Positions 1-44,530 of a stretch of 46,899 nt of DNA are shown piece after piece. Numbering within the stretch: position 1 is the stretch's first letter; each line of letters starts with the position of its first letter. The notes beneath the pieces were generated by a model. That model was not told the origin of the DNA and did not search any database. It worked only from the letters and a program-made list of their open reading frames with translations. Source of the stretch: a virus. Its lineage: Duplodnaviria > Caudoviricetes. The position numbers and the translations under genes were made by a program. The stretch spans positions 1 through 46,899 of the IMG/VR virus record IMGVR_UViG_3300030433_000503; one strand, given 5' to 3'.

Positions 1-2247
1 ACCTATACCAGCTTCAGCATATATTTCTTGCATTTTAGGCTTTAAAGAATTTGTTACATATGTACTCCAGGTAACTCCTTTTGCAGGGTCAAAATTATTT
101 ATAATTGGACCAAGTCTAGAATTAATAGCTTCTAATACTTTGTTTCTTGGTATTGTACCTGCTTCTGTACTAAATCTAACAGCTTCTAAGTATAAATTTT
201 GATTACTATCTATTAAAGCTTGTTGAGCTTGATTTTGAGCAGCTTGGCTAGCATTAGGATCTTTTATTGTTTCAAGTAATGTTTCGTTTATACCATCAGC
301 AGAGTCATCTACTTCTATATCTGTTTCTTCTACAGCTTCATCAGTTCTTCTAGTTGGTAAAACACTCATACCTACTGTTTGTGATTTTTCTTGTTCAAAA
401 GCAGCTTTTTCTTCTACAACTATTTCGCCTAATCTACTATTTATTTCATTTACTCTATTTGTATCTTCTTGAGTTAAAGCAGAATCATCAACTTGTTTTA
501 TTTTTTGTTGTAGTTTATTTTTTTCTATCAATAAACTAGCTGCTTCAACATTTTCATTTAATCCTAGTGGTTTTAATTGTTGAGATGCTTGAGTTATATT
601 TCTAAAATTTTCTTGTATATTATCAGCTTGTTCTTGATTTATTTTACCTAATTCTAAATCTTTTGTAACTTGTTGATCTAATATTGTTTTAGCTTTTGGT
701 GTTTGTGCTATTTTTAATTCTTCTAATCCACTAACAGGTTTAGATAAATCTACAGGTGTAGAATAAACTTCGGTTATATTATTAACATTAAAATTAGGAT
801 TAACTTTAGCAAGACTTTTGTTTATTTTATTAATAGCTACAGCTTCTTGAATACCGTTTTTAACTTGCATTACATTTATAGGACCAGCATATGTAGCACC
901 ACCACCAACACCTTGTATAAAAGCATCGTTAACTCCTTCAAACGGATCTTTACCGTTTATCATGTTTTGAGTTATTTGTGTAGCAACTTCTTCTATACCT
1001 TCACCTAATGCACCTGCTGGAGCTCCTGCTTTTTTAAGAGCTTGTTCATACATTTCAATTAACCCGTTTCTAAATACTTTTTGTCCTTGTTGTCTACCTT
1101 CTTTCAGTAATATATCTTTATATACTTTACCTAAAGTTCCACTACCAATAGCAGAAAAAACTGTTTCAGCACCTGCTAAACCTATTGCTTTAGCTGTTAA
1201 ATCAAACTCACTAGCACCTGGATTTTCTTCTCTTAATCTTCTAAGTTCAGGTCCTAAAAACATAGGGGTTGAACCAGCGGCTAATTTAGGTATACTTGTA
1301 GCTGCTCCACCCATCATCATGCTCATGCTTACAGGCGCACTTTCAGCTAAACCACTACCTAGCTGTTTAAAACCATCTGACCAATTGCCTTTTTTAAAGT
1401 TTTCATAAATACCTTGAGTATCATAATTTTCATTATTCCAAATAGTTTGTTCTTTACCTAGCTTTTCGGTTTCTTCTTGATAAAACTCTAACAAAGGATT
1501 TGTTATACCAAACTCTTTTTTAAATTTTTCAGAACTTAATTCGTATTCTTTAGGTAAAATACCAGCATCTACTAACCAGTTTTGTGGTGTAGAAAATATA
1601 TCATAAAAACTCTCACCTAAACCAAACATCATTTCACCTAATGTTGTACTACCTTTAGCTAAATCTACAGTTACTAATTTTTCTAAATAAGATTTTTTAG
1701 CTACTTTATCTTTTTCAATTTGCTCTCTATTAGAGCCGCTTCTTAAAGCTGCGTTATGATCTTCAATAGCTTTATTTAACTGAATTAAAGTATCGTTATA
1801 CATTTTAATTCTATTAGGAGCATCCATGGCATCCATTTCCATATCACCTCCAGATATTTTAATTAAATCAGCTTCTAATTTATTTATATTTTCTTGAGAA
1901 CTTTTAAAATCATATTTAGGTCCAACTTCAACCATTTCTCTAAAATAAGTTTGTGGGTTGTCGTATTCTTCTGGTATATTTATTTTTTCAAAATCTATAT
2001 TTGTTGGAAAACTATAACTACCATCATTAACATATTGTTTATAGGCATCGTTAATAGCTTTGTCTAATTTTTCATTTTCATCTATTGGCTCAGTAGCAGA
2101 TTCAATAGTTAATTTTATAGGCTTTTCTTCTACAACTTCTTCAACTTCAGGCTGAGGATTTTCTTTTCTCCACTCTTCTAATCTTCTTGTTCTTTCTTTG
2201 TCAGATATGTTTTGAGGTAGAGACAGTGCAAATTCTTCTTCTGTCAT
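1..2247 (-). CDS. Giant internal virion/ejection protein, N-terminal part (runs off the left edge), with a sigma70 region-2-like segment
   Basis: Not in the ORF track because it has no stop in the window. ATG at 2247 (MTEEEFALSLPQNISDKERTRRLEEW...); frame spot-checked open to position 1. Gly/Ala-rich hydrophobic stretch with EGIEEVATQ motif; position after tail and ejection genes as in crAss-like phages. Confidence 0.8.
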   Translation of the reverse strand, partial: MTEEEFALSLPQNISDKERTRRLEEWRKENPQPEVEEVVEEKPIKLTIESATEPIDENEKLDKAINDAYKQYVNDGSYSFPTNIDFEKINIPEEYDNPQTYFREMVEVGPKYDFKSSQENINKLEADLIKISGGDMEMDAMDAPNRIKMYNDTLIQLNKAIEDHNAALRSGSNREQIEKDKVAKKSYLEKLVTVDLAKGSTTLGEMMFGLGESFYDIFSTPQNWLVDAGILPKEYELSSEKFKKEFGITNPLLEFYQEETEKLGKEQTIWNNENYDTQGIYENFKKGNWSDGFKQLGSGLAESAPVSMSMMMGGAATSIPKLAAGSTPMFLGPELRRLREENPGASEFDLTAKAIGLAGAETVFSAIGSGTLGKVYKDILLKEGRQQGQKVFRNGLIEMYEQALKKAGAPAGALGEGIEEVATQITQNMINGKDPFEGVNDAFIQGVGGGATYAGPINVMQVKNGIQEAVAINKINKSLAKVNPNFNVNNITEVYSTPVDLSKPVSGLEELKIAQTPKAKTILDQQVTKDLELGKINQEQADNIQENFRNITQASQQLKPLGLNENVEAASLLIEKNKLQQKIKQVDDSALTQEDTNRVNEINSRLGEIVVEEKAAFEQEKSQTVGMSVLPTRRTDEAVEETDIEVDDSADGINETLLETIKDPNASQAAQNQAQQALIDSNQNLYLEAVRFSTEAGTIPRNKVLEAINSRLGPIINNFDPAKGVTWSTYVTNSLKPKMQEIYAEAGIG

Positions 2248-2253
2248 TTAATT

Positions 2254-3357
2254 TTATTTACGTGGATTTCTTTGTAAAAAAGCTTGAGCTTGTTTTTTCT
2301 TGCCTTCTTCTAAATCAAACACAGCTGCGTCAGCTTGTACTGTAGGTATTTGATTAGTAGTAAATTGTTTTAAATAGTTATTCATAAAATACTCTTTGTA
2401 TTTTGTCATGAATAATTCTTTTTTATTTTGCTGTAGTGGTAAATCTTTTTCATAAGACCAAGCTACAAAACCAGCATTAGCATTTTGCGCCATCTGATCA
2501 TCTTCAGAAACACTAGTATCAGCACCAATAAATACGTTCCATGCTGCAACCACTGACTGTTCAGAGCTTAATAAACCAGCTACTTCAGCATTTATAAATG
2601 GAGTTACTTTTCTTTCAATTTTATCTAAATCATATTTAAGTAAGTTTCTACCTTTACCCATACCTATATCTATAATTTCATAATCGTAACTACCATCGGA
2701 GTTTTTTAATACAAACTCATCTGCTATTTTAGCTCCAGGCATTAATTCACCTGTTTCCGGGTTAGTTGAATTACCTGCCATTACGCCAACTTCGCTTAAT
2801 AATCTTAGCATGTCTGCATTTATATCTGGAGTTTCAGCCACCATATCTGTATTAGAAGCAATTAGAGCATCCAGAGACTCACTATTTATTACAAAAGGTT
2901 GTTCTAGCATAGGACCTTCAAAAACCATCTCTTGACTTCCGTTTGAATTTAAGTGTAAAGATATATTATAACCATCGTTTTTTGCAAAAGTAGGTTTACC
3001 TGATAATATACTATAAGCTACAGCGTATTTATAATCTTGATTAACATCATAATAATTATCTTCTGTAACGCTTAATTGTGATCCTATATTGCTAATAAAA
3101 TCCATAGATTTTTGAGGCGCATCCATTAAGTATTTTAATTGTTGATTTTCTCTATAACAAGTAGCGTCAACACAATCGTTGTTTTGTATAGCTGTTTTTA
3201 GCTTAGCGTAAACCTTACCAGTGCCTTCATAAGCGTTATCTAATAATCTAAAATTATAATCAGCTTGACTAGCAATATATTGTTTATTATAACCAAGCGC
3301 GTTACTCTTGTTTAGTTGTTTTATAAACAGATTAATTTTTATATTTTTATCTTCCAT
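2254..3357 (-). CDS. Putative internal virion protein
   Basis: 367-aa ORF between the pilot-like gene and the giant virion protein; function inferred from position only. Confidence 0.6.
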   Translation of the reverse strand: MEDKNIKINLFIKQLNKSNALGYNKQYIASQADYNFRLLDNAYEGTGKVYAKLKTAIQNNDCVDATCYRENQQLKYLMDAPQKSMDFISNIGSQLSVTEDNYYDVNQDYKYAVAYSILSGKPTFAKNDGYNISLHLNSNGSQEMVFEGPMLEQPFVINSESLDALIASNTDMVAETPDINADMLRLLSEVGVMAGNSTNPETGELMPGAKIADEFVLKNSDGSYDYEIIDIGMGKGRNLLKYDLDKIERKVTPFINAEVAGLLSSEQSVVAAWNVFIGADTSVSEDDQMAQNANAGFVAWSYEKDLPLQQNKKELFMTKYKEYFMNNYLKQFTTNQIPTVQADAAVFDLEEGKKKQAQAFLQRNPRK

Positions 3358-3370
3358 TATAATTTATTTA

Positions 3371-4033
3371 TTAATCAAAATCAGCTGAACCTAATAAATT
3401 AGCTGCTGCACCAATACCTCCTGTAAAAGCCGCTGTAGCATCTGCGCTTGCTTGAGCTGCCGCACCTCGTAAAGCACCTATTTGATTAGCTAATCTATTT
3501 AATTGTTGCATTTCTCTTTGTTCTCTTTGAGTAAATACAAATTGATCACCAGCAACTTCTGCTTGTTGTATTCTTTGAGCTTCTGCCATTTGTTGTCTTT
3601 GTAGTGACGCTTCGCCTTGAGCTCTTGCTTTTTCGTTTGCAACTTCTTGTGATTCAATACTAGCAGCAACACCTTTTTTAGCTTGTAAAGCAGCTTGTGC
3701 TAATGCAGTTGCACTACCAGCGCCACCACCTGTAGCTCTAATAGTATCTAAAGTATTAGCTAAAGCTATATCTGATTGTTCTATTTGCATTTCAGCAGCT
3801 TGCGTAGCAACCGACAAGCTAGCAAAAGGATTAGACAACATTGAACTTAAATCAGTTACGTTTTCATAAGGATTTATTATTTGTTGTCTATTATTTTCTA
3901 GTCTATTTAATTTACTTTGTAATCTGCTTGCTTCACGCTCTCTACGTCTAGCTTCACGTTTGGCTCTACTTGAGCCAAATATTCCGCCTACGACACTAAT
4001 TGCACCGCCTATAATTGCACCTGTTGCTGACAT
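3371..4033 (-). CDS. DNA ejection/pilot-like protein
   Basis: Gly/Ala hydrophobic N- and C-termini flanking an Ala/Gln-rich coiled coil, typical of podovirus ejection proteins. Confidence 0.65.
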   Translation of the reverse strand: MSATGAIIGGAISVVGGIFGSSRAKREARRREREASRLQSKLNRLENNRQQIINPYENVTDLSSMLSNPFASLSVATQAAEMQIEQSDIALANTLDTIRATGGGAGSATALAQAALQAKKGVAASIESQEVANEKARAQGEASLQRQQMAEAQRIQQAEVAGDQFVFTQREQREMQQLNRLANQIGALRGAAAQASADATAAFTGGIGAAANLLGSADFD

Positions 4034-4052: not shown

Positions 4053-5543
4053 TTATTGATAACCATTATTTGCTATATATTCACTTCCAACAGCAAACAA
4101 CTCTTTTTCACCTCCAACATCTGTTACCGAGTCTGTTGCTATTGTTACTGTTGCAAAAAATCCTTTAATACCTGACATAGATGAGCCAAAAGCTATTTCA
4201 CCTGAAGCAGCGCTGCTATTGTTTATTAAATTTGCAACATATTTATTTTCTTTTCTATTAAAACCAGCGTAGTTAAAAGGAAGCACAATCGCTGATGTAC
4301 CTGTGTTTGCAGGAGTTGCTGAGTCATAAGTTCCTTGAACATAACTATATATTAAAGCGCTTGTATCTTGAAAATCAACCCAGTTGTTATTAGAGTAATT
4401 TAAATTTTTACCTGTTAAATCTGAAACAAAACTATTTATTTGCCAACCATTACTTCCTTCATAATCAACAGTTTTAAAGTTTTTAGATCTTGACACTGCT
4501 GGGTTAAAAACAAACGTAATAGAACTAGGTTTTATTGAACCACCATCATTAGGATAGAACTTGTTTCTAACACCCGCTAAAGAATAATGCTCATATAAAG
4601 AACCAAATTTTACGCTATAAAACTTATTACCTAAACTAAACATGTGATCTGGTTTATAAGTAAAAAAGCTAGTCCAACCTTTAATATTTTCGTCCCATGT
4701 TAATGTTTCATAACCTTCTTCAAATGTAAATTCATTTTTGCCTGATTCTTGAGTAGATAAAACATATTGTTTATTATAAATATCCCAACCTCCTATTATT
4801 TTACCTGGAACTCCTGCTACATTTATATCTGTTCCTAATCTGTCTCTAAAATAATCTATCATATTAGCTGCTGATATTTCTTGTATTTGACCACCAACTA
4901 GTTTTAATATTACATTATTATTTTTATCAGAAAAATATTTTGCTGTTCCATAAAAAGCAAAACTCTGAGGATCTTTACTAATACCATATTTACCTGGAAA
5001 AGGAACTATTTGACCTATTACTAAGTTTTGTTGTGTAACAGCTGTTCCAGATCCTTCTGCAGAATATATAGCGTCTTTATTTATTAAAGCTTTATTTATT
5101 TTTAATTCTTGAAATATAGTTAAATTAGTATTTTCTGCATGAAGTTTTTGTATTGAACCATTTGATGGATTTAATGATTTAACTATATTGTCACCAACTG
5201 AAAAAACATTTGTTTCATTAATACCTGTTCTAGAATTAAATATACCAGAGTATATCATACTGTTACCTCTTACAGAACTGTTTGGCTCTTCTTCTACTAA
5301 ATAAGCTTTAGCTCCAAAAGATACAGTTGTATTATTATAACCACCATTTATTCTTGATTCTTCAATAACCCAGTTGTTACCTACATCTGCATTTGTAGAA
5401 CTAGGATAACCACCTTTATCTGCTGGTATACCATTAGAACCGTTCCAAACAGGTATATCACCGTAGCTTGGACTAGTTATATTAGCATTAACTTTCTTTA
5501 GAAGGAATGTATTAAAGTATTTAACTTCTACAATAGCAGCCAT
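4053..5543 (-). CDS. Tail stabilization/muzzle protein, C-terminal part (beta-propeller)
   Basis: Motifs IYSGIFNSRTGINETNVF, KSLNPSNGSIQKL, YGISKDPQSFA, TWDENIKGWTSFFTY resemble the C-terminal half of crAss-like muzzle proteins. Confidence 0.7.
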   Translation of the reverse strand: MAAIVEVKYFNTFLLKKVNANITSPSYGDIPVWNGSNGIPADKGGYPSSTNADVGNNWVIEESRINGGYNNTTVSFGAKAYLVEEEPNSSVRGNSMIYSGIFNSRTGINETNVFSVGDNIVKSLNPSNGSIQKLHAENTNLTIFQELKINKALINKDAIYSAEGSGTAVTQQNLVIGQIVPFPGKYGISKDPQSFAFYGTAKYFSDKNNNVILKLVGGQIQEISAANMIDYFRDRLGTDINVAGVPGKIIGGWDIYNKQYVLSTQESGKNEFTFEEGYETLTWDENIKGWTSFFTYKPDHMFSLGNKFYSVKFGSLYEHYSLAGVRNKFYPNDGGSIKPSSITFVFNPAVSRSKNFKTVDYEGSNGWQINSFVSDLTGKNLNYSNNNWVDFQDTSALIYSYVQGTYDSATPANTGTSAIVLPFNYAGFNRKENKYVANLINNSSAASGEIAFGSSMSGIKGFFATVTIATDSVTDVGGEKELFAVGSEYIANNGYQ

Positions 5544-5549
5544 ATTATT

Positions 5550-5577
5550 ATTATTACTTGTTTTTTAAAGATTTTAA
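5550..5577 (-). promoter_or_regulatory. Class II (middle/late) promoter motif
   Basis: TTAA-N16-GTAATAAT; one of six copies with identical spacing. Confidence 0.65.
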
Positions 5578-8500
5578 GAACCGTTACACAGTGTTTGAGT
5601 TATTGGTTGCTGCACAAAGCCAGCAGTTATAGCAGCAGCAGACATACTTCTAGCACAAACAGTATATATAGAACCATTATTTATTATAGTTCCAGTTGAA
5701 GCTGTAGCATCGCCTAAACAATCAGTATAAACAAAACTACCTAAATTAGCTCCATCATTAGATGAGTTATATAAAAACGTATAACAAAAAGTTCTATCTA
5801 TAACTAAATTAAAATTACAAGTAGCTATTGCTCCTCCAGCATCTTGAACTGTTGCCACGCATACATATGTTCCGTCAACCATACTAACTGGAGGGTTACC
5901 TCCTTGAAAATAAAATCTTCCTCGCCAGTTTAATACATTTATTCCTTGATCTATTTGTACATCACCAGTACCACTAGGCCCATAATCAATACCGCTTTTA
6001 GTCACTGTTATTGACCACGTTAAATCTTTATAAGTGTTACCACCTAGTGCATTAGATCCATTTTGAGCGTTTAACGTGTGGAAAGTTCCACTACCACCAC
6101 CACTAGTTCCTGGCACATAAGTAGCTGGATTAACACAACTTATTATTGTTGGATTAACGTTTTGAAGTGCAACTGGTCCTTGACTAACTATAGTTTCAAC
6201 ACCTGAAGGGTGGTTTATTTTAAAATTAAATAAATATGTTTGACTAGTAGTGTTTTGATTACTATAATATAAAAAGTCTTGAGTTTTTACATTATAACTG
6301 CTAGATGCTGAATTTGTTACTAAAGCAAAGCTAGAAGTAACATCATTAGGTGGTTCATTATAATCTAAAACACTTTCTAATTCTATTTGAGGTGGAACAG
6401 TAGCCGCATACGAAACATTATTACCAAACTGATCAACTATTGTAAAATTACTAGTTAATATATTGTTATTATTACCTAAAGTTTCTAAAAATGTTCCTGT
6501 GTAATCAAAACCACTTATACTAACTGAATCATTTATACCTCCTAAAATAGCAGTATTTAACTCGCTTATTAGTCCCGTGCTTGTAGTTTCCCAAAATATA
6601 TCTAAATTTGAATCTACAGCATCTGTTTCCATTACAGCTAGTTGAGGCATATTTACAAGCCTAGGTACTGTAAGAGACGTTGAATTAGCATTTCTAAATG
6701 GTGTAGGTGAAAAAGTTATTACATCACCATTTGATGGAGTACAAGCAACACCGCTCGGATTATTAATATTTACTACACTACCTACAACATTTACAACTGT
6801 GCAGCCTTCAGGTATTCCTTCACCAGAAATTTTTTGACCTGCAACTATAACATTTGAAGGAACAGATCCTGGAGATACAGTAGTTGTATCTACTCCAAAA
6901 GTAGTTGCTGTATTATTAGCGCCATCAGCCTCTATAGTTACTAAAACCGCTTGTATACCAAATTGACCTGAAGGTGTGTTTATTCTTGCTATTAAAGGAT
7001 CTGAGTCAACATTGTAAAACTCAGTAGGAGCAGAGTAATTAACATTATTAATACCATTAAATAAATCATCATCTGTAGCTATAGCGCTTACAATAGGCGG
7101 TAATAATCCAGGGTAATATTGTTTATTATTAACATCAACAGTACTACTGTTTAAATTTTCTACTCTACCGTGTAGTATTACACTACTTCTAAATAGTTTT
7201 TGTTCAGGACCAACTTCTGTTAAATCTCTAGGTACTTTATTAATATTGTCATTTATTAATACAGCGTGAGATGTTTTACCTAGCTCTTTGTTTATATTTT
7301 CTGGATAAGCAGCCATAACACCAGGTAAATATACATTGTAATATTCTTGCTCTGTTTGTTTTACTACAATTTTATAAGAATACCAACCAGTTGGATTGTA
7401 ATCAGTACTTGTTGTATCGCTATTATATAAACCAGTAGTTGATCCACTTATAGGATCATTAAACAAAACTTTTAATGAGTTGCCTAAAAAAGTTCTAGCA
7501 GCAACATTGCTATCAATATACGGTGAAAAAACTGTAGAACCTAAATAATTTTTATTATTAAAACTAACTGAATTATCTGTAGATGATAAAACAACAGTAG
7601 ATTGTCTTCCATATCTATCAGATAAAACTACACCTACTTGATAATTTCTATTTTGTTTTAATGAAGAATTAGGATATTCAACAGAAGATGTAGTATAACT
7701 AGTAGGATTACTATTACTAAAAGTTAAAACAGTATTATCAGGTAAGCTTTGAGTTAAATTATTACTTATAGTTAGTGTTGAGCCGATATAAGATACTACA
7801 ACTGTACCCACAGGAACACCTGGGTTACTAGCAATAACAGTCATTCCATTATTTATAACACCTGTTATTGTGTCTATAGAAAAATTATCAACTGTTGCTC
7901 CTGTAGCTCCATTGACCAGCGCGCCGCCAGTACCAATATTAAATTCTGTTTTTTCACTAACACCTACATTGTAATTTATTGTAGAAGGCGGATTGTGTTT
8001 GTTTTGAAAATTAGCATAAACAACTCTATTACTTATAACTTCTTGACCTAATGCTTTTACAGGAACTACATCATAAGTTCTGGTTGTTTCGCTTGAAGGC
8101 AAAGTTTTAATTGGTTTAGTACTTTGATACTCATATTCAAAAACATTTGGATCACCAAAAGTTAAAACTGTATTATTTGCTAAGGTTTGAGCAGTAGATA
8201 AAATAACTGTGGTTCCATCAAAACTTACAACAGTAGGGCTATTAGCTATACCTGTGCCTGTAACTAAAGCACCAACTCTTATACCACCTGTGACAGTATC
8301 TACTGGAATATTAGTAACACCAGCAGGTGTTCCATTAACTTGAGCAGTACCTGTTTGATTTTGTATTTTTGATATTGAAACGCTATCAATTACGTTTATA
8401 TTGTTTGTATCAGACTCTTTATATAAAATATCTATTTCTTCTACTTTTAAAACACTTTGCATTTGAGTAGAGTTATAAGGTAATGGTATTCTAAGTAAAA

Positions 8501-9674
8501 TTTTATTTACTTTGTTTTCCATAAACTCTACAGTTGTAGTTCTATAAGTATCTTCTTCATCTTGAATATCTAGTATTGGAGAATTATTTTTATAACTAGA
8601 AAGAGAACTATCATTTACTTTATACATAAAATACCCGTCTTGTTTTGGTATAAAACAATCTTGGGTAAATGGAGACATTATAGAATATTCACCATCAATA
8701 AATTTAAACCTATAACCAAACCTTACAAATTTATCATGTAAAAAATCACTATCACCATTATAGTTTATTTCATAATATTCATTGTAATTAAATATAAATT
8801 GAGGATTATCCGTAGTAGTAAGCGTAGGTATAATATTAGCTAATATAGTTACATTGAAATATGTTCCACCGCTTGTAACATTACTAACAACTGCTGTAGT
8901 TTTATAAAAAACACCATTTAATATATATGCTATAGTTGCACCTATTATTAAATCACCTTCAAATGAGCTTTTTAATATTCTTAATGTAGTTGATGCAGTG
9001 CTATAATTATTAGATAAATAACCAATACCACCATCAGGATAATGTTTACTAAAAACATCATATAGTGTTGTTTCATAATTAGTGTTAGATACCGCTACAT
9101 CAGAAGCAACTCTATATAATTCAATAGTTTTATAAGGATTATATTTAGCTACAGATATTTGATCTTCTGTAGTATAATAAGTAACTCCATTTACTAAAGC
9201 TAATGATACATTTATTTTTCTTGGTTGATTTCTATTATCTGTAAAAAATAGTAATTCTTCTAATATATTAACACCTGTTATTGGAAAAAGTGTAGAAAAA
9301 TTTAAAAAATCACCTTCAACTAATATAGAGCCTACTGAACTAACAGCGTCATACATTACTATAAAAGAAGATTTATCTGCTCCAGGTGAAACTTTATAAT
9401 CACTACCAGTATTATCTGTTAAAAATAAAAAAACTCTATTATTTATTTCATCAGTGCAATAACCTATAGAAAATAAGTTATCATTATTACATAGTTGTCT
9501 AAAATCAAAAGATAAAATGTTTCCTAAAGTATTTTCTAGCGCACCTACATTTTGGCCTTCAGATTTGCTTATCTGAGTATTAATTGCGTTTCTATATTCT
9601 CCATTAGGTATTAATCGATCATCAAGATCTTTATTCATTCTACCTTTTAGAAAATTATTAATTACTTTTGCCAT
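5574..9674 (-). CDS. Tail stabilization/muzzle protein, N-terminal part with inserted beta-rich repeats
   Basis: N-terminus FLKGRMNKDLDDRLIPNGEYRNAIN, FFTDNRNQPRKIN, RFGYRFKFIDGEYS and SLKQNRNYQVGVVLSDRYGRQS typical of crAss-like stabilization proteins. Confidence 0.75.
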   Translation of the reverse strand: MAKVINNFLKGRMNKDLDDRLIPNGEYRNAINTQISKSEGQNVGALENTLGNILSFDFRQLCNNDNLFSIGYCTDEINNRVFLFLTDNTGSDYKVSPGADKSSFIVMYDAVSSVGSILVEGDFLNFSTLFPITGVNILEELLFFTDNRNQPRKINVSLALVNGVTYYTTEDQISVAKYNPYKTIELYRVASDVAVSNTNYETTLYDVFSKHYPDGGIGYLSNNYSTASTTLRILKSSFEGDLIIGATIAYILNGVFYKTTAVVSNVTSGGTYFNVTILANIIPTLTTTDNPQFIFNYNEYYEINYNGDSDFLHDKFVRFGYRFKFIDGEYSIMSPFTQDCFIPKQDGYFMYKVNDSSLSSYKNNSPILDIQDEEDTYRTTTVEFMENKVNKILLRIPLPYNSTQMQSVLKVEEIDILYKESDTNNINVIDSVSISKIQNQTGTAQVNGTPAGVTNIPVDTVTGGIRVGALVTGTGIANSPTVVSFDGTTVILSTAQTLANNTVLTFGDPNVFEYEYQSTKPIKTLPSSETTRTYDVVPVKALGQEVISNRVVYANFQNKHNPPSTINYNVGVSEKTEFNIGTGGALVNGATGATVDNFSIDTITGVINNGMTVIASNPGVPVGTVVVSYIGSTLTISNNLTQSLPDNTVLTFSNSNPTSYTTSSVEYPNSSLKQNRNYQVGVVLSDRYGRQSTVVLSSTDNSVSFNNKNYLGSTVFSPYIDSNVAARTFLGNSLKVLFNDPISGSTTGLYNSDTTSTDYNPTGWYSYKIVVKQTEQEYYNVYLPGVMAAYPENINKELGKTSHAVLINDNINKVPRDLTEVGPEQKLFRSSVILHGRVENLNSSTVDVNNKQYYPGLLPPIVSAIATDDDLFNGINNVNYSAPTEFYNVDSDPLIARINTPSGQFGIQAVLVTIEADGANNTATTFGVDTTTVSPGSVPSNVIVAGQKISGEGIPEGCTVVNVVGSVVNINNPSGVACTPSNGDVITFSPTPFRNANSTSLTVPRLVNMPQLAVMETDAVDSNLDIFWETTSTGLISELNTAILGGINDSVSISGFDYTGTFLETLGNNNNILTSNFTIVDQFGNNVSYAATVPPQIELESVLDYNEPPNDVTSSFALVTNSASSSYNVKTQDFLYYSNQNTTSQTYLFNFKINHPSGVETIVSQGPVALQNVNPTIISCVNPATYVPGTSGGGSGTFHTLNAQNGSNALGGNTYKDLTWSITVTKSGIDYGPSGTGDVQIDQGINVLNWRGRFYFQGGNPPVSMVDGTYVCVATVQDAGGAIATCNFNLVIDRTFCYTFLYNSSNDGANLGSFVYTDCLGDATASTGTIINNGSIYTVCARSMSAAAITAGFVQQPITQTLCNGS

Positions 9675-17684: not shown

Positions 17685-19904
17685 TTAACTTATAATTTTT
17701 GATGTCGATCCTTTATTGTTATATTTTTTAATACCTAAATCAACAGGTTTTAATTCTCTTGCGGCTACTGGGGTGTATCTATGTTTATTACACGCCATTA
17801 AAGCTAAACCTGAACTAATCGAAGCATCATGAGTTGTTCTATTGTTTATATTAAATTTTGCCCAATCTTCTAATGTTCTTTGAAAATACATATCTCCATA
17901 TCCTGTTTCTTTTAAACCCACAAAATGTTCTATGTATGTTTCAATAGCAGCTGCATGAGCTTGTTTTATATCTTCACTAGAATTAGGTATACCACCTATT
18001 TCTCTTTCTGTAACTGATAATTTATTTCTTACTTTATCAGGTCTATTCATTGCAAAACCTCTATAGCCTCTACGTTTAAAATAATATAAAAGTCTTGGTT
18101 TATTATTTTCTACAAGTATTGGCATACCATAAAAAACACACGCCATTAATACATCTTCAAAAAATATTTCAGCTGTTTGAGGTCTAGCTATATATTCTAA
18201 GAAAAAATGATTTGGTGGAGCATTTTCCATGCTAAATTTTGTTAATCCGTGCAAAGAACCATTTGAACCTCTTTTATCTACAGTTCCTGATATATCATAA
18301 GGATCGCAACCAAAAGCACCCATATGTTCATTGCTAGGATAATTTACACCATTTTTAATATATCTTCTGTTTTGTACGTTTATATCTGGTATCCAAGTAA
18401 TAAAAAATCTTCCTTGTTTATTTGGTATAAATATAACTTTAGTATCTTGTTTACTATCTTCCCATTGAAAATTACCTTGAGTTACACTTATACTATTTTT
18501 TAAATCTTCATTAAAATCTATTTGTTCATATATTTTAGTTAGATTAAATAAAGATTGTTTTGACTCATCTCTAAAAGCATGTTTAGTTGTACGAGGAAAC
18601 TGTCTATAAAATTCATTTAAAGCGTCTTGATCTTGCTTCAAACCTTCTACTTCATTATCCCAATATTCTATAACACCTTGCTTTATTAATACACCATGAG
18701 GGTCTTTAACTTGTTTTTTCGGTGTATCGAATACAGGTAATCCATAAGAATCAATGTATCCTTCGTAATTCCATTCCATAGGTATGAACAAACTATATAA
18801 TCCTGAGCGAGTCTGTCCATTGCTGTTTCTTTGTGTGACATCTGAGTTATCATATAATTTTTTAAATTCTTTACCACCTTTATCTAAAGAGTTTGATGTT
18901 GAACCCATCATACACTTTCCAATAATTCTACTACCTAATCTTAACGTGGTTTTCGTAACCCTCCAGTTGTTGAGGATGTTGTTCGGCTTTTCCCATTTAC
19001 CGGACTCGTCGTGAACGAGAAGTTTGAGTTTCTCACCGTCATAGGAGTTGTCACCTGTGTTTTTCCAATCGATGGTGGTGTCAAGACCTTGTAATTCGTC
19101 TTGTAAGGTTTCGTCGGCTGGGGCGGTAAGCTTACGACGGGTATACTTGGTTGCGGGGACACGGTAGGCAAGCTCGGTCTTTGGACGGTCCATTCCGTCC
19201 TGGGTCGGTTTGAAAAAGAAGGGATAATTAACTGATATGGGTACCACCTTATCTGTGAACATCTTCTTGGCATCAGGACCGGACTTGGATAATATACCAT
19301 ACCTACTGTCACTTGATATGGTTGCCAGGTTAACCACCTCTCCTGAGGCCATGAAAGAAAACCCGGAACGCCTGTTCTTAAGGTAACACATCCCATAGGA
19401 TCGTGAATCTGCCTTGCAAGCTTCCCAGAAAATAAAGAATAATCGATTTGACTCCCTAAAGTCTGGTGCCCCGACGTCAATCTTAGACCACTGCAGGTAC
19501 ATGTAATGAGTACCACTAATATAAGTAGGAACGTCTTTGTTATAAAACCAAAAACCTTCTTCCCTACGGGTAAACTCGTTGTCAATGTAATCATACCATC
19601 TTTCTTTAAAATCTTCTGGATATTGTTTAAAATCAAATACTGTTTTTATTTTACTTAAAACTTTAGGATATTCAAATCGGCTCCATTTATTATCTTTAAA
19701 CTTATGAATACTTTTTGCTTTTGGTAAAGCTATTTTAAGATTTTGTATTTCATATATATCACCTATTGTACCGTCTTTGCTAATAATAACCATATCATGC
19801 TGATCATTATAACCATACTCCCATTTTTTATGTTTATTATATTTTTTAAGAGTACTAGGTGTAATATAATCTTTTAGTATTGTATATAAAGTTTGCTTAT
19901 ACAT
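17685..19904 (-). CDS. terL: Terminase large subunit
   Basis: Walker A LKNRRSGFS, Walker B LLVHDESGKW, motif III MGSTSN, nuclease FGCDPYD...HDASISSGLA. Confidence 0.92.
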   Translation of the reverse strand: MYKQTLYTILKDYITPSTLKKYNKHKKWEYGYNDQHDMVIISKDGTIGDIYEIQNLKIALPKAKSIHKFKDNKWSRFEYPKVLSKIKTVFDFKQYPEDFKERWYDYIDNEFTRREEGFWFYNKDVPTYISGTHYMYLQWSKIDVGAPDFRESNRLFFIFWEACKADSRSYGMCYLKNRRSGFSFMASGEVVNLATISSDSRYGILSKSGPDAKKMFTDKVVPISVNYPFFFKPTQDGMDRPKTELAYRVPATKYTRRKLTAPADETLQDELQGLDTTIDWKNTGDNSYDGEKLKLLVHDESGKWEKPNNILNNWRVTKTTLRLGSRIIGKCMMGSTSNSLDKGGKEFKKLYDNSDVTQRNSNGQTRSGLYSLFIPMEWNYEGYIDSYGLPVFDTPKKQVKDPHGVLIKQGVIEYWDNEVEGLKQDQDALNEFYRQFPRTTKHAFRDESKQSLFNLTKIYEQIDFNEDLKNSISVTQGNFQWEDSKQDTKVIFIPNKQGRFFITWIPDINVQNRRYIKNGVNYPSNEHMGAFGCDPYDISGTVDKRGSNGSLHGLTKFSMENAPPNHFFLEYIARPQTAEIFFEDVLMACVFYGMPILVENNKPRLLYYFKRRGYRGFAMNRPDKVRNKLSVTEREIGGIPNSSEDIKQAHAAAIETYIEHFVGLKETGYGDMYFQRTLEDWAKFNINNRTTHDASISSGLALMACNKHRYTPVAARELKPVDLGIKKYNNKGSTSKIIS
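18941..19594 (-). CDS. Putative overprinted (+1 frame) lipoprotein/membrane-anchored protein nested in terL
   Basis: 217 codons from ATG 19594; KTFLLILVVLITCTC signal-like segment, W/Y/P-rich middle, P/S/T/R-rich tail; boundaries coincide with a GC-rich island. Confidence 0.55.
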   Translation of the reverse strand: MITLTTSLPVGKKVFGFITKTFLLILVVLITCTCSGLRLTSGHQTLGSQIDYSLFSGKLARQIHDPMGCVTLRTGVPGFLSWPQERWLTWQPYQVTVGMVYYPSPVLMPRRCSQIRWYPYQLIIPSFSNRPRTEWTVQRPSLPTVSPQPSIPVVSLPPQPTKPYKTNYKVLTPPSIGKTQVTTPMTVRNSNFSFTTSPVNGKSRTTSSTTGGLRKPR

Positions 19905-31432: not shown

Positions 31433-31869
31433 CTTGTTTTATCTTTGTTTAAATTATAAATTGCTTTTGTCATTACTTTATCCATATATGAAGTGCCAGT
31501 TATTATTTTATTTCTACTAGCAACGTTTATATCTTCATGACCAAGCATTATTCTATATATGCGCTGAATTAATTGTTTACCTTTAAATGATATTTTATAT
31601 ATATTATATTTTTGTGTAGTTCTATTTCTATTACGCCACACAACTATCCAATCATTTTGTATTAATTTATTCCATCTACGATTATTCCAACTGTACGTAT
31701 ATGTACCCGCTTTAAAATCTTTTATTGTAAATAAATCAATGCAATCAAGGTATATTAATAATTCTAAATCACTATCGGTTAAATTGTTGTTTTTGCAAGC
31801 CCATTTGCGTATTACTCGATAGTGTTTCATTAAGTTTAAATCCTTAATATCTTTTGCACTTAATCTCAT
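31429..31869 (-). CDS. Winged-helix (MarR-like) DNA-binding protein
   Basis: LTDSDLELLIYL...KLIQNDWIVVW...YKISFKGKQLI pattern. Confidence 0.6.
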   Translation of the reverse strand: MRLSAKDIKDLNLMKHYRVIRKWACKNNNLTDSDLELLIYLDCIDLFTIKDFKAGTYTYSWNNRRWNKLIQNDWIVVWRNRNRTTQKYNIYKISFKGKQLIQRIYRIMLGHEDINVASRNKIITGTSYMDKVMTKAIYNLNKDKTR

Positions 31870-32126
31870 AAAACAACTACAATATCTTGAGCTTTAATTA
31901 CACGATAAGATTTTTTATCAATTTCTATTTTATGACCAGCATGACGATCAAAATATATTTTATCATCTTGTTTTAATCCTACAACTTCATCACCTACCGA
32001 AACTATACTAGCTTCAACATATCTAATGTCTTCACGTTGGTTTTCTGCAAGAAGTAAACCACCTTTTGTTTTAGTAGTTCCTTCTTTTATTATATTTATT
32101 ATTAAATTTTTACCTACTGCTTTCAT
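31866..32126 (-). CDS. groES: Co-chaperonin GroES
   Basis: KTKGGLLL mobile loop, IVSVGDEV, VIKAQDIVVVL; adjacent to groEL. Confidence 0.88.
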   Translation of the reverse strand: MKAVGKNLIINIIKEGTTKTKGGLLLAENQREDIRYVEASIVSVGDEVVGLKQDDKIYFDRHAGHKIEIDKKSYRVIKAQDIVVVL

Positions 32127-33657
32127 CAACTCTAATATTATTAATTACACAATCTGTTGATAAAATAGTAGTTGCCACTGAAGCTGCATTTTGAAGAGCG
32201 CTTTTTGTAACTAACAGTGGATCAATAATACCACTATTAATCATCTTTACCATATTTCCTGTAACAACATCAATACCTTCACCATCTGAACCTGATATTC
32301 TATATTCTTCATATCCAGCATTAGCTAGTATTGTTTTATAAGGAGATAATATAGCTCTACCTAAAACTTCTTCACCTACATTTTTTTCTTTTATTTTTAA
32401 TGCAGCGTTTAGCAAAGCAACACCACCGCCGGGAACAATTCCTTCTTTTATTGCAGCTTTAGTAGCACATATAGCGTCTTCAACTCTATCTTGTTTTTCT
32501 TTTAATTCAATATCAGAGTTAGCGCCTACTTTTACTATTGCTATTTTGGCAGCTAACATAGCAAGTCTTTTTTCTAACTTAACTACTTCGTTTGCTGTAT
32601 TTTTTTTATTTAATTTATTTTTAATTTCGTGTATTACTTCTTTTACTTCATTTGAAGTATTTTTTACTTGTAATATAGTTTCGTTTTCAGTTGTAATGCT
32701 TTTTACACATTTACCTAAATATTCAACTTTAATTAAATCTAAATCATCACCTAAGTCTTCATTTATAATTGTAGCGCCAGTTAGTAAAGATAAATCATCA
32801 AGTAATTGTTTTCTATTAACACCATATGTTGGTGCGTCAACTACATTGATCTTAATATTACCTTTTATTTTATTCATAGCTAGAGCCGATAAAACACCTT
32901 TTTCTAAGTCGCCAATAATAAGCAAAGGTTTATTGTTTTTTATTACGTACTCTAGCACTGTTTGAATTTGTCTTATAGAATCTATTTTTGATTCTACTAA
33001 CAGCACTAATGGATTTTCTAATTCAGCTGAATGATTTTCAGCATTAGTTATAAAATGCCTATTGGTTAATCCTTTTTCATATTGTGCGCCTTCAACTAGT
33101 TTTATTTCTGTTTTACCAATAGCTGACGGCTCCATCATTACTACGCCTGTAAGATCTACAGCTCTAAATGCATCAGCAATTAATTTACCAAGCTCTGGAT
33201 CATTATTTGTTGATATTGTAGCAATGTGATCAATCATATCTCCTTCTACTGAAACAGATATTGATTCTAAATATTTTACAACTTTTTCAACAGCAGAGTT
33301 TATACCTTCTTTTAATACTCTTGAATTTGTTTTATCAGCAACTTTATATGCTTCTTGTAATATAGCATGTGCTAAGACTGTTGCAGTAGTAGTACCATCT
33401 CCTGCTTGTTGAACTGTTTTACGTGCTGCTTCTTTTAAAAGCGTAGCACCCATGTTTTCTACTGGATCTAACAAAATTACTGAGTCAGCTACTGTTACAC
33501 CATCTTTTGTAATAATTGGTTTACCTGTTGCGTCTTCAAGTAAAACACACTTACCGCTAGCTCCTAGTGTGGAGCTAACAGCTTGTGTAAGTTTTGTTAT
33601 ACCCTTAAATACTTGTTCTCTGGCTGTATCGCCAAAGTTCAGATTTTTAACTATCAT
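32110..33657 (-). CDS. groEL: Chaperonin GroEL
   Basis: ITKDGVTVA, AGDGTTTATVLA, GIVPGGGVAL, GIIDPLLVTKSALQNAASVA; lacks the GGM tail. Confidence 0.95.
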   Translation of the reverse strand: MIVKNLNFGDTAREQVFKGITKLTQAVSSTLGASGKCVLLEDATGKPIITKDGVTVADSVILLDPVENMGATLLKEAARKTVQQAGDGTTTATVLAHAILQEAYKVADKTNSRVLKEGINSAVEKVVKYLESISVSVEGDMIDHIATISTNNDPELGKLIADAFRAVDLTGVVMMEPSAIGKTEIKLVEGAQYEKGLTNRHFITNAENHSAELENPLVLLVESKIDSIRQIQTVLEYVIKNNKPLLIIGDLEKGVLSALAMNKIKGNIKINVVDAPTYGVNRKQLLDDLSLLTGATIINEDLGDDLDLIKVEYLGKCVKSITTENETILQVKNTSNEVKEVIHEIKNKLNKKNTANEVVKLEKRLAMLAAKIAIVKVGANSDIELKEKQDRVEDAICATKAAIKEGIVPGGGVALLNAALKIKEKNVGEEVLGRAILSPYKTILANAGYEEYRISGSDGEGIDVVTGNMVKMINSGIIDPLLVTKSALQNAASVATTILSTDCVINNIRVDESSR

Positions 33658-34054: not shown

Positions 34055-37000
34055 GCTACAACTAAGTTTCCGGAATTGTCTATGCTTATTTTTCTAGTAG
34101 TATTGCCGTCTGGAGACACTAAAGTAATACCGTCGCCAGGTCCTGGTAACTTAGCACCACTAGATATAGTTTCTAATTTTGAAACATTTAAATAATAAAG
34201 CTTTACTCCTTGACCATTAAATCTTGCTAAATTATCCGTGCCTTCTTTAATCCAAACATCGTTAGAGCCTTGTATTATTAAATCTCCAGTTCCAGTATCG
34301 CTAATATAAGAATCAGTACTATCGTGATATATTTGTAAATCAAAACCAGTTCCAAAAGTTGCTCTAGAATTATCAGGAAATACGGTATATACAGTTCCTG
34401 CTGATGCCGCACTACCATCTAATCTAAAGTATTGAGAAACACCCCCACTTCCATTATCACACTTAAATATTATATCAGAATCATCATCATTGTTAGTAAT
34501 AACAATATTACCGTTATTACTTAATATGCTGCTGGATGTACCATCGTGGCTTATTCTAAAATCAGCACCATCTCCAATTAAAAGTTGTACATTATCTGAT
34601 AACTTAACATTTTTAGAAAATAAAGTTACTTCATCACCACCATCAACTCTAAAATATTCAGTTAATCCACCACTACCATCATCACATTGAAAAGCTATAT
34701 TACTATCATCAGCTCTTTGCTGTATTGTAAGATTACCAGTATAATTTTCTATTTTACTATCGCTGCCATCGTGTGAAATTCTTAAATCATTTCCAGAGCC
34801 AATAGTAAAAGTAATATTATCTTTTACGTTTACATATTTTTGACTTCCATCTAACATTAAGTATGTAGTCATACCACCAGAACCATCATCACTTTGAAAT
34901 ATTATATCTCTATCGTCAGCACTATTTGCTATATATAAATCACCTGTATTATTTTGTATAATGCTATCTGTAGCGTTATGTGATATTTGTAAATCAAAAC
35001 CCCCACCAAAATATGCCACAACGGTATCATTCCACATTACATTTTTTTGAAATCTGTTTAACTCAGCGCTACCATCAATGGTATAATAACTGGTTACTCC
35101 TCCACTTCCATTATCGCATCTAAATATAATATCTTTGTCATTAGCGTTTTGCTGAATGTATAAATCACCATTTATATTATCTATTTGATTTAATGAAGCG
35201 CCTGAATTGTGTTGTATTAATAAATCATTGTTAGCGCCAAATGTTAAACTTTTATCATCAGGAACATTAACCGTATTGGTATTACCATCAATAACGAGCA
35301 TTTCAACACCATCGTTTGGCATTAACTTTAATTGTGCACCTACATTTAATAATCTTGAATATGCTGTATTATCTTTTATTCTTATTTCAGCAATAGAATC
35401 ATCTGACTCAAATTGTGCTACTAAATTTTCATTTCCAGATTTAACTTGCAGTTTTACTGTAGGGTTTAAAAAACTATGGCCAATTCCAAGATTACCAGCA
35501 TCAGTAAGAACCATTTTGTAACTTTGAACTGTATTATTAAAAAATGATAAACCAGCTGTTATTTTACCAACTACAAAGTCGTCACCTGGTCCTGCAAAAT
35601 TTACACCAGGCGCTCCACCTTCTAATTTTATTCCATCGAATCCACTACCTATATCTGCTGAAAATTTAAAGCTATCAGATCCATCTACAACATGTAATTT
35701 TTCAACTGGACTAGTGGTTCCAATACCTACGTTTCCTGATGAGTTTATTGTTAAATAATCAGTTGAACCTACTGAATTACCGTTAGAAATTTTAAAACTA
35801 TCATTATCACTATTATCTATACCTATAGCATATTCTATTGTTCCTGAAAGTCTAAAAGCTAAAGTTGCATCACCAGTTCCGTCTTGATCTATTAACAACA
35901 TTCTACCAACCTGATTATCGTTACTTCTTACATGTATTCTTGCTTCAGGCGATGTTGTTTTAATACCTAATCTCATATTAGTATTATTCCAATAAAAATC
36001 ATTGTCACCAGTTACAGAGTTTACACCATTCCAGAAACTAACTTGACCAGTAGCGCCCGCACCTTGTACAAATGTTTGATCTATTTTATCCCATTTATCA
36101 ACACCGCCAACTTCTACAAATACAGCCCAGTCACCAACTTCCCAGTCAGTAATACCATCTAGGTTTGTATTACCAGCTACAGATACTACATAGTAATTAC
36201 CTACAGTACCTGTTCCCGATGCTAATGTTGGAGTATTTGTGCTAGCGTTCCAGTTACCTTTAAATACAAGACCTGCTGGTATACTTGATATTTGTTGATC
36301 AACGTATTGTTTTGATGTAGCATGCGCATTTGCTGTAGGTATAAGTGGTATTTCTACATCACCTGAAAAATGAGATGGAAGCGTAGAGTCAGAATTAATT
36401 GCTCTTGCTGTACCTGTTACTGGAGTGGGAACAGGATCATTTTGTATTTGTAAGTATGCAAAGTCACCTTGAAGTGTTCCACCACCTGGATAATCAAAAT
36501 CTAATAAATTAACCGCTATATCACCTGAAACATTACCAGAGTTAAATGTAACGTTGGTATGTTGGCCTTGTAAAAACTCTACATCAACAGCAGTTCCAGT
36601 ATCCATAACAGAAGATATATTATTACCTATCATATAACCCAAATCACCAGTCGCTGTAGCTGTTACTCTAGCTTTTGCTTGAGCACCGTATAATGAAGAC
36701 CAAGTAGCATTAGTACCAGAACCATCATACCTAGCTTCTGTATATGCACCGTATAAAACGCCATCATAACCATTAGTTCCTTCAAACTCAGCTTTTGTAT
36801 ATAAACCATAATTATAAGAACCTTTGTTTGCGCCAGTGTGTTTACTATCACCATATAATGCAATGTTAAACGCTCCTGTTGCTGTACTTGTTTGATTAGC
36901 TCTTATTCCATGTATTGGTCCTGATGTGCCTGTTGGTGATGATGTAGATAAAAAAGTACCTGCTAAATCTATTTGCGTAGCATTTTCAGTCATAATAGAA

Positions 37001-37944: not shown

Positions 37945-37975
37945 CGAAAGTTAATACTAACTTTGTTAGATAATA
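37945..37975 (+). promoter_or_regulatory. Class I (early) promoter motif, copy 1
   Basis: CGAAAGTTAATACTAACTTTGTTAGATAATA. Confidence 0.75.
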
Positions 37976-38100: not shown

Positions 38101-38131
38101 CGAAACTAAATACTAATAACATTAGATAATA
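38101..38131 (+). promoter_or_regulatory. Class I promoter motif, copy 2
   Basis: CGAAACTAAATACTAATAACATTAGATAATA. Confidence 0.75.
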
Positions 38132-38750: not shown

Positions 38751-38781
38751 CGAAATAAAATACGAATAACCTTAGATAATA
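38751..38781 (+). promoter_or_regulatory. Class I promoter motif, copy 3
   Basis: CGAAATAAAATACGAATAACCTTAGATAATA. Confidence 0.75.
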
Positions 38782-39395: not shown

Positions 39396-39426
39396 CGAAA
39401 CATAATACGAATCAAGTTAGATAATA
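39396..39426 (+). promoter_or_regulatory. Class I promoter motif, copy 4
   Basis: CGAAACATAATACGAATCAAGTTAGATAATA. Confidence 0.75.
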
Positions 39427-40254: not shown

Positions 40255-40326
40255 AGCGGGATAGAGCAGTGGTAGCTCGCAAGGCTCATAACCTTGAGGT
40301 CGTAGGTTCGACTCCTACTCCCGCAA
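40255..40326 (+). tRNA. tRNA-Met(CAT), initiator-type
   Basis: Cloverleaf with 1:72 mismatch, GAGC/GCTC D-stem (A11:U24), CAAGG-CTCATAA-CCTTG anticodon arm, GTAGG-TTCGACT-CCTAC T-arm; CCA not encoded. Confidence 0.93.
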
Positions 40327-40342
40327 CTATGACAAAATGTCA

Positions 40343-40373
40343 CGAAACATAATACGAATATAGTAAGATAATA
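40343..40373 (+). promoter_or_regulatory. Class I promoter motif, copy 5
   Basis: CGAAACATAATACGAATATAGTAAGATAATA. Confidence 0.75.
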
Positions 40374-41694: not shown

Positions 41695-41790
41695 GGGCGC
41701 GATAAGGTATTGACCGAGACGTGGTAACAGTAAGCGTAAGCTGAATCCAACCGAGTCATGGTAACGCAGGTTCGAATCCTGCCGCGTCCA
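41695..41790 (+). ncRNA. Mini-tmRNA: tRNA-like domain with Ala identity and no normal mRNA-like domain
   Basis: GGGCGCG/CGCGTCC-A acceptor with G3-U70 and A73; unpaired D-loop ATAAGGTATTGA; helix CCGAGAC/GTCATGG; TAAC linker; GCAGG-TTCGAAT-CCTGC T-arm. Confidence 0.7.
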
Positions 41791-42414: not shown

Positions 42415-42445
42415 CGAAACTTAATACGAAAAAAGTTAGATAATA
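42415..42445 (+). promoter_or_regulatory. Class I promoter motif, copy 6
   Basis: CGAAACTTAATACGAAAAAAGTTAGATAATA; last base is the A of the next ATG. Confidence 0.7.
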
Positions 42446-43653: not shown

Positions 43654-43757
43654 GAAGAAAATTATACGAACACTTAGTAAGTACCAATGTATTTGGTATT
43701 AGAGATAAAATAAAACAATTAAAAAAAGGCAGAAAAAAAAGAAATGAAAAAATATAA
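43650..43757 (+). CDS. Small hypothetical protein (35 aa)
   Basis: MRRKLYEHLVSTNVFGIRDK...; ATGA overlap; fills the gap. Confidence 0.4.
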   Translation: MRRKLYEHLVSTNVFGIRDKIKQLKKGRKKRNEKI

Positions 43758-44487
43758 TGTAGCTAACTACATTCGGTATAAAGAGGATTTAAAAGCAAGT
43801 ATGCCAAAAGATAAACCTTATAAAGATTATACCAGACAAGAACTAATAGTAAAGTTTTTACCATTAGTAGAAACACTAGGTAGAAAATTTTCAACTAGTG
43901 ATCAAGCTTCAGGTGTTATGAGTATTATGGATATAATACAAGCTGGCAGCGAAGCATTAACAAAAGCAGTTGACAGATTAGACTGGGAAACAGTAGATAA
44001 ATCTGACGACGTAGAAAAAACTTTAAAATCATTTTTTAGTAAACGTATTAAAGGTGGAATACGTAGACGTATAGATGCCGCTCGTGGTAACATACGTATA
44101 CCAGAACACCAATTAAATCATATGCGTAAAACAAAAGATAAAAAAGCTGTTGAAATGTTTTTTAATAGTATATTTTTATCTATTGACGCTAAAGTAAATG
44201 ATGAAGATATATTTAATCAAATACCTGATAAATCAGAACCATACAACATACACTTAATGAATTTATACTTAAAAAGCTTAATGCAAAAGTATTTAGAATT
44301 TGGTGAGTATGAAGTATTAAGATTAAGTTATGGGTTAGACTGTGATAAGCACTCAGCCAAAGAAATAGCTGCTAAACTAGGCATTGAAGGATCGTCTAAT
44401 TATGTACGTGTTTCAGAGCTAAAAAAGCAAGCTGTAAATAAGCTTATAGATAATGTAGATCACTCGCAAGTGCTTGATTATCTGTAA
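43744..44487 (+). CDS. Phage sigma70-family RNA polymerase sigma factor
   Basis: Region 2 (RQELIVKFLPLV...DIIQAGSEALTKAVD...IRIPEH) and region 4 HTH (VLRLSYGL...AKEIAAKLGI...RVSELKKQAVNKL). Confidence 0.88.
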   Translation: MKKYNVANYIRYKEDLKASMPKDKPYKDYTRQELIVKFLPLVETLGRKFSTSDQASGVMSIMDIIQAGSEALTKAVDRLDWETVDKSDDVEKTLKSFFSKRIKGGIRRRIDAARGNIRIPEHQLNHMRKTKDKKAVEMFFNSIFLSIDAKVNDEDIFNQIPDKSEPYNIHLMNLYLKSLMQKYLEFGEYEVLRLSYGLDCDKHSAKEIAAKLGIEGSSNYVRVSELKKQAVNKLIDNVDHSQVLDYL

Positions 44488-44496
44488 GTTAGATAT

Positions 44497-44524
44497 GTAA
44501 ATTAATGTTTAAATATGTAATTAT
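44497..44524 (+). promoter_or_regulatory. Class II promoter motif heading the replication genes
   Basis: GTAA-N16-GTAATTAT, directly after the sigma gene. Confidence 0.7.
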
Positions 44525-44530
44525 AATACT

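Follow-up and report, generated by a model that had tools for sequence, protein, structure and literature searches.

A sigma domain-2-like module embedded in a giant, putatively virion-packaged protein of marine flavobacterial phages

Introduction

In the literature covered by our search, phage sigma factors are described as products of the infected cell, and a phage whose early promoters are not of the host type is described as carrying a polymerase of its own. The closest systems of the latter kind are the virion RNA polymerases of the Crassvirales phage phi14:2 and of N4 (PMC10136315, PMC5512222), described, like the protein considered here, as the product of a giant cargo gene that ends a crAss-like virion block and with a proposed role in early transcription. 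In contrast to these enzymes, the giant protein reported here showed no polymerase motif or family match in the ORFs and relatives searched; as a cargo of this kind would act by redirecting the host's own enzyme, rifampicin would be expected to inhibit early transcription. The polyvalent proteins of Iyer et al. (2017; PMC5512222) are comparable in being multidomain, with swappable enzyme-like domains and a frequent, though not universal, zincin-like HExxH hub, which many relatives of the giant protein also have but its own lineage lacks. The word 'sigma' is absent from the main text of PMC5512222, and it does not occur in the part of PMC8776804 that was covered either.

Among sigma factors, domain 2 of sigma-70 (PF04542; SigB, 8x6g; SigA, 4x8k; sigma-28, 6pmj) resembles the domain described below in predicted fold, helix order, the FDP...ST(Y/F) segment and predicted docking on the polymerase clamp. 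The domain of the giant protein, however, lacks the region 2.2 signature, falls below every curated cut-off, has no sigma-4 that we could find, and is embedded in a protein of 2,300 aa. The late sigma gp55 of phage T4 (7d7d chain F; PMC2988020) is described as likewise highly diverged, with a sigma likeness confined to domain 2 and with another protein taking the sigma-4 site, a role that we propose for the domain downstream of the embedded one. The small, free-standing gp55 is produced in the course of infection and serves late genes, whereas the embedded domain is putative virion cargo, and its candidate sites are early and carry an upstream part. Finally, gp53 of mycobacteriophage D29 (bioRxiv 10.64898/2026.10.05.756390) has also been modelled on the sigma-binding surface of the host polymerase, but it is a small protein found during infection that displaces sigma, and we liken it to the embedded domain by its description only. 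A literature search, confined largely to open-access papers, turned up no account of a sigma domain carried by a virion protein.

Results

The window, i.e., the whole stretch of DNA analysed (46,899 nt), is an entire virus record of 46.9 kb that is 73% complete. According to Pfam and PHROGs, the terminase, portal, capsid, ring and muzzle genes of this phage are crAss-like, and its terminase is 62% identical to that of MW202828 and 31-44% identical to those of elemo, Pachyviridae and Pervagoviridae phages. The presence of GroEL-like and sigma-70 genes is compatible with the group 2 Flavobacteriaceae phages as described by Nishimura et al. (PMC5332604). GroES- and GroEL-like genes, read by eye at 31866-33657 (minus strand), also occur in elemo phages and in MW202828, and the terminase gene contains a 231-codon open frame on its own strand (18941-19636, minus).

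The virion block ends with the gene order muzzle, 220-aa gene, 367-aa gene and giant gene, all on the minus strand, which matches the order in phi38:1, phi13:2 and elemoA, whose last gene is annotated as structural. Two genes of 496 and 1,366 aa (4053..9674) jointly correspond to the crassvirus-type muzzle protein (PF25731, E 6e-9; PF25729, E 6e-7; phrog_14478) and have homologues in cultured relatives among the matches listed; phi38:1 and elemoA, in contrast, have a single muzzle gene. The 220-aa gene (3371..4033), with hydrophobic, glycine-rich ends and weak matches only (T7_gp14 family, E 0.08, Pfam), is a candidate first ejection (cargo) protein, and the 367-aa gene (2254..3357), which lies between the 220-aa gene and the giant and has no family match in Pfam or PHROGs, is a candidate ejection protein by position. 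The last gene (1..2247) is open at the end of the record and encodes the N-terminal 749 aa of a protein that measures about 2,300 aa in close relatives. It stands last, after the muzzle and two smaller genes, as ejection or cargo proteins do, and because of this position we infer that its product is packaged in the virion. Since the window is the whole record, the remainder of the protein was taken from the relative L003, whose complete giant of 2,311 aa is 95% identical to the window's protein over the last 300 aa; all statements on the giant beyond the end of the window refer to L003. A glycine-rich segment (850..1422, minus strand) is conserved in the family and weakly common to the last-gene structural proteins of cultured relatives, the family profile scoring 29 bits with elemoA gp21, 12 bits with phi38:1 gp101 and 8 bits with phi13:2 gp127 (best reversed control, 4 bits). 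Among the matches listed, the giants of cultured relatives showed this weak N-terminal likeness only, without the sigma-like, HAD and C-terminal domains, and tblastn with the giant as query found no match, and hence no isolate carrying it, among 50,697 phage records.

A preliminary description of this DNA had proposed that a sigma-70 region 2 is embedded in the giant protein. The peptide on which it was based is indeed encoded at 16-285 of the minus strand (residues 655-744 of the ORF, nt 285 corresponding to residue 655). The helical domain to which it belongs, resembling sigma domain 2 (regions 1.2-2.4), extends over 1..285 (minus strand; giant residues 655-749), its last helix being cut by the record end so that it overruns the window by about two residues. 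In a phmmer search (E<=0.001), 24 of the 27 matches covered the domain segment, all of them in giants or giant fragments, and the peptide is therefore more than chance; the other three were unrelated repeat proteins. The sigma pattern read into the peptide holds for one half: FDP.KG..(W/F)STY is plainly sigma-like, and the (W/F)ST(Y/F) segment is the best-kept part of the window's subfamily, but DLxQEGxxGL is not kept. Compared with SigB, the family profile retains at most an acidic pair and one leucine-glycine in that stretch, the window's own sequence retains less, and the glutamine and glycines of the core-binding signature of region 2.2 are gone. In the gene preceding the giant of one relative (L016:4369-6282), a short end stretch resembles the first helices of the sigma-like domain (E 3.6 among the matches listed, which may be chance).

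A Pfam match to Sigma70_r2, named as a check in the preliminary description, did not appear: neither Pfam nor PHROGs gave a sigma match in the window's protein or in 23 relatives, only one of 68 family members matched PF04542 (E 0.03), and NCBIfam searched with the window's 110 aa returned RpoS models only (E 0.004), far under their cut-off. Remaining below the curated cut-offs of PF04542 and of the NCBIfam profiles, the embedded domain is, judged by sequence, not a member of any curated sigma family. When searched against the PDB, a profile of 11 rows (A1) had SigB as its only match under E 0.1 (E 0.008), and a deeper profile (A3) had no match; a profile of the whole protein (A2) returned coiled-coil noise and was set aside. 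ESM Atlas gave 0.96 for Sigma70_r2, with all ten named matches in one family or clan and the match resting on 155 of 256 shared features. The subtypes of the embedded domain show low mutual identity and indels, and hhalign of A1 against the phage's own free sigma factor reached 0.5%, i.e., there is no sign of a recent duplication.

AlphaFold (68 rows; the L003/L012 copy) predicted a confident five-helix domain (pLDDT 70-95 by block), followed by a disordered acidic linker and a helical domain of 200 residues with a beta hairpin. In a structural search of 48,161 chains, rows 1-30 were sigma-2 chains (29 by title and one scaffold with the same residue range), with SigB as best match (Z 8.6, rmsd 3.1 A over 89 residues), gp55 at Z 7.3 and the first unrelated match at Z 4.5. 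A subtype of about 20% identity gave the same ranking (top 14 rows sigma, Z 8.5; gp55, Z 7.6). These Z values are middling and in a range common for helical bundles, and Foldseek on the first model found no match at E<=0.001; the assignment is therefore based on the ranking and on the agreement of methods rather than on Z alone. Two subtypes thus have the predicted fold of sigma domain 2, as the preliminary description had expected, whereas a region-4 helix-turn-helix, which it suggested seeking, was not seen: the downstream part gave no sigma-4 match in two models, which the structural search barely tested, and ESM Atlas returned no usable match for the downstream domain.

The host RNA polymerase, named as a possible partner in the same description, was modelled together with the module. 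The complex with residues 1-345 of a flavobacterial beta-prime subunit scored 0.69, versus 0.00 for three controls, a mark reached by 116 of 157 solved pairs and by 2 of 215 mismatched pairs; the runs share at least 62% of contacts, and partner pLDDT was at least 75. The modelled contacts join beta-prime residues 274-321, which we take to be the clamp helices, with partner residues 28-40 and 67-78 and with the linker. The coiled coil is described as the docking site of both sigma-2 and gp55 (PMC2988020). A docking on the host clamp is thus predicted, but because holoenzymes have already been solved, the score may merely echo those known structures. Overall, genuine kinship of the domain with sigma-2 is very likely, and it may still be able to dock on polymerase.

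At the opposite end of the window, the promoter-like motif CGAAA-N3-AATAC-N11-GATAAT (class I) occurs in six exact copies before small plus-strand genes, with 0.01 expected. They lie on the plus strand at 37945..37974, 38101..38130, 38751..38780, 39396..39425, 40343..40372 and 42415..42444, the last one preceding the genes for the ligase and the free sigma factor. Two tRNA-like stretches were seen by eye in the same region (41695-41790 and about 40256-40327). In 12 of 19 contigs, this motif family came out on top of a blind dyad search; the other seven, where the early region may be missing, gave no such motif. The giant gene was present in 25 of 28 records picked solely by the ACAAA form of the motif (long records among the first 80 of 205 loci), and in 1 of 11 picked by CGAAA, mostly through single matches, namely G061. 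Among further records, 37 of 40 were without a motif copy, all being under 90% complete, and four related records without the sigma-2-like domain were also without the free sigma gene and the CGAAA motif. In G038, 19 class I copies lie in two near-duplicate blocks, which might be a terminal repeat or an assembly duplication. The host consensus is given as TAnnTTTG in PMC9723704; this box is not enriched in the window (76 versus 79.5 expected), and no full host-type promoter was found in its non-coding DNA. The isolates provide a weak control, with five such promoters in phi13:2, three in 42 kb of MW202828 and none in the 50 kb covered of phi38:1 or the 37 kb covered of elemoA, and a sigma-70 consensus scan of the early region was uninformative (59 versus 48.5 expected). 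The non-host early promoters of the preliminary description are supported to the extent that a repeated non-host motif precedes the predicted early genes and travels with the giant.

A free-standing phage sigma factor of 247 aa is encoded at 43744..44487 on the plus strand (phrog_351, E 3e-15; TIGR02937, E 4e-10), downstream of the last class I copy and upstream of a class II site. It is present in 31 of 43 records with a mean identity of 65%; in G008 the gene is split into two frames (35215-35965). Directly after the gene lies a short GT-TAA-type motif (GT-G/A-(T/A)-TAA; 44516..44526, plus strand), here called class II, and class II-like elements precede four late genes on the minus strand (upstream of 11662, 12532, 21197 and 33967). 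Of 346 other gene starts in relatives, 62 are preceded by the motif, versus 21 in shuffles, a count made with a pattern chosen after inspecting the data. The motif is a candidate target of the free sigma factor.

The giants of this family share an order of domains: a glycine-rich N-terminal part, an optional HExxH domain, the sigma-2-like domain, a linker, a helical domain (type A or B/C), a variable nuclease-like part, an HAD-like domain and a helical C-terminus. The HAD-like (DFDDT) and nuclease-like motifs were read by eye in the protein P0002 and are conserved in A2, with no library match; the enzyme names HAD-like, nuclease-like and protease are presumed by us from such motifs. The sigma-2-like domain is found in 195 of 199 long ORFs, a circular figure because these ORFs were gathered through this same module; a set of 80 loci selected through the C-terminal domain instead includes 57 that match one of three sigma-2 profiles, four that are too short and 19 that are unmatched. 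One sigma-2 subtype comprises 1,104 clusters. In L239, L240 and L241 (about 2911-3975), the downstream domain of L223 is combined with unrelated-looking sigma-2 subtypes, which suggests that the modules were swapped independently. Several giants (P0114, P0116, P0125 and others) carry extra domains according to precomputed Pfam accessions, presumably a zeta-toxin or AAA_33-like kinase or LysM.

The HExxH protease is located directly upstream of the sigma-2-like domain in 109 of 195 relatives. Among protease-bearing proteins, 57 of 99 have xxS(K/R) tags ahead of the domain and 41 of 83 have them behind the downstream domain, as against 2 of 54 and 6 of 52 in protease-less proteins (background 9%; all counts from related, not independent, sequences). 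In the protease-bearing relatives, the tags thus bracket sigma-2 and the downstream domain as one unit. Neither the window's 749 aa nor the full-length relative contains HExxH. The release of the sigma domain by proteolysis, as envisaged in the preliminary description, is consequently unsupported here in the form of self-cleavage, since this lineage has neither the protease nor the tags. A virion RNA polymerase, its second candidate partner, did not emerge either: no catalytic motif is conserved in the 199 long ORFs or present in P0002, and PF00623 was found in 0 of 5 near-complete relatives (control 14/14), as was PF00940 (0/5, without a positive control), although a very diverged enzyme could escape such searches.

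Discussion

We propose, at about even chances, that the giant protein delivers a gp55-like sigma factor with the virion and so starts the transcription cascade of the phage. According to this proposal, the giant with its diverged sigma domain 2 would be packaged and then injected together with the DNA, and the module would bind the host's core enzyme and initiate transcription from the six class I sites. There, sigma-2 would open the GATAAT element, and the upstream CGAAA-N3-AATAC part would be bound by the downstream domain in place of sigma-4. In the protease-less lineage of the window, the module would remain tethered. Class I transcription would yield the free sigma factor, which would then act on middle and late genes by reading their class II sites.

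Which of the two sigma-like proteins goes with class I may be judged from covariation. In favour of the embedded one, each genome keeps to one version of the motif's first five bases, and this version changes from genome to genome, yet the 2.4 and 4.2 helices of the free sigma factor are identical across both motif kinds. The C-starting form accompanies a type-A downstream domain (7 of 7 genomes), and ACAAA accompanies the other types (10 of 10 unselected genomes); among the 25 ACAAA-picked records there is no strongly type-A one, yet G034 and G057 combine a weakly A-like downstream domain with ACAAA. In a tree of the C-terminal domain (32 rows, with G001 standing in for the window and nine proteins without the full domain left out) type A appears at two places, and the covariation therefore represents at most two events. 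The base before GATAAT, compared by eye with the sigma-2 subtype, followed no clean rule. A single mosaic record, G061, breaks the covariation of motif and downstream domain: it has a non-A module and three CGAAA copies, the latter within 2 kb at the contig end (42225-44281) where identity to the window's early region switches abruptly to 96.5%, the remainder being 67-88% identical. As its first site is ACAAA-like, G061 may be a recombinant or an assembly chimera.

The likeliest alternative, which we consider unlikely but by no means negligible, is a decoy: the injected domain would bind the beta-prime clamp and displace host sigmas without reading DNA, either for host shut-off or to free core enzyme for the free sigma factor, which would read class I after a leaky first expression. 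The predicted docking would serve this role, and displacement of sigma by mimicry has a precedent in the description of D29 gp53 (bioRxiv 10.64898/2026.10.05.756390). The rates of change fit it as well, and count against the main proposal, because the embedded domain is hypervariable (median identity 23% in 16 genomes, versus 57% for HAD in 15 genomes and the 65% of the free sigma factor) and AATAC-N11-GATAAT is nearly invariant nonetheless; G104 and G105 have an identical motif despite very different sigma-2 subtypes, and the mosaic G061 points the same way. One TAnnTTTG box lies inside class I copy 1, but it is absent from the equivalent site in G004, and the box is not above chance in the window. 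The presence of two motif classes and two sigma-like proteins, with the free sigma gene between class I and class II sites, speaks against a mere displacer, as do the recognition helices of the free sigma factor, which do not track the motif variants, and the preservation of the (W/F)ST(Y/F) segment above all others in the window's subfamily.

It is improbable, in our estimate, that the domain instead serves as a tether at the entry channel, holding host RNA polymerase on the ejected protein, promoter choice being left to the downstream domain or another factor, such that transcription would pull the genome in or the nuclease-like and HAD domains would reach their target. Lacking protease and tags, the window's lineage would keep the domain in a protein with hydrophobic C-terminal segments, and the upstream motif variants track the downstream domain and not sigma-2. 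This is countered by the relatives, where the protease directly upstream and the flanking tags, found on each side in about half of the protease-bearing proteins, point to a released unit.

Quite doubtful is a relic, i.e., a once-fused sigma factor decayed to a structural spacer that lost polymerase binding. Low identity between subtypes, indels and the lost region 2.2 signature would agree with decay, but the best 120 of 1,104 proteins of one subtype, compared together with the linker and the first part of the downstream domain, are 56-100% identical, the domain keeps a fixed place while the neighbouring enzyme domains are swapped, and docking is still predicted. That the domain is a common helical bundle without sigma kinship is most improbable, since five methods put sigma first in two subtypes, despite the middling Z, the missing Pfam match and the 0.5% obtained by hhalign with the phage's own sigma.

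Conclusions

More broadly, and tentatively, at somewhat less than an even chance, we suggest that a large group of marine flavobacterial phages uses a third route to start transcription, dependent neither on the host holoenzyme nor on a virion polymerase, in which an injected hybrid sigma directs host core immediately to promoters found in the phage alone and opens a two-sigma cascade. This hybrid would consist of sigma-2, an acidic finger and a DNA reader other than sigma-4, all inside an ejection protein. The core claim is open to in vitro work without a phage isolate, and the phage group concerned comprises over a thousand protein clusters. If true, the swapped sigma-2 and downstream domains with their matching promoter variants would form a natural set useful for the study of promoter recognition, and delivery of a sigma factor by the virion would capture the host enzyme from the first second of infection at a lower cost.
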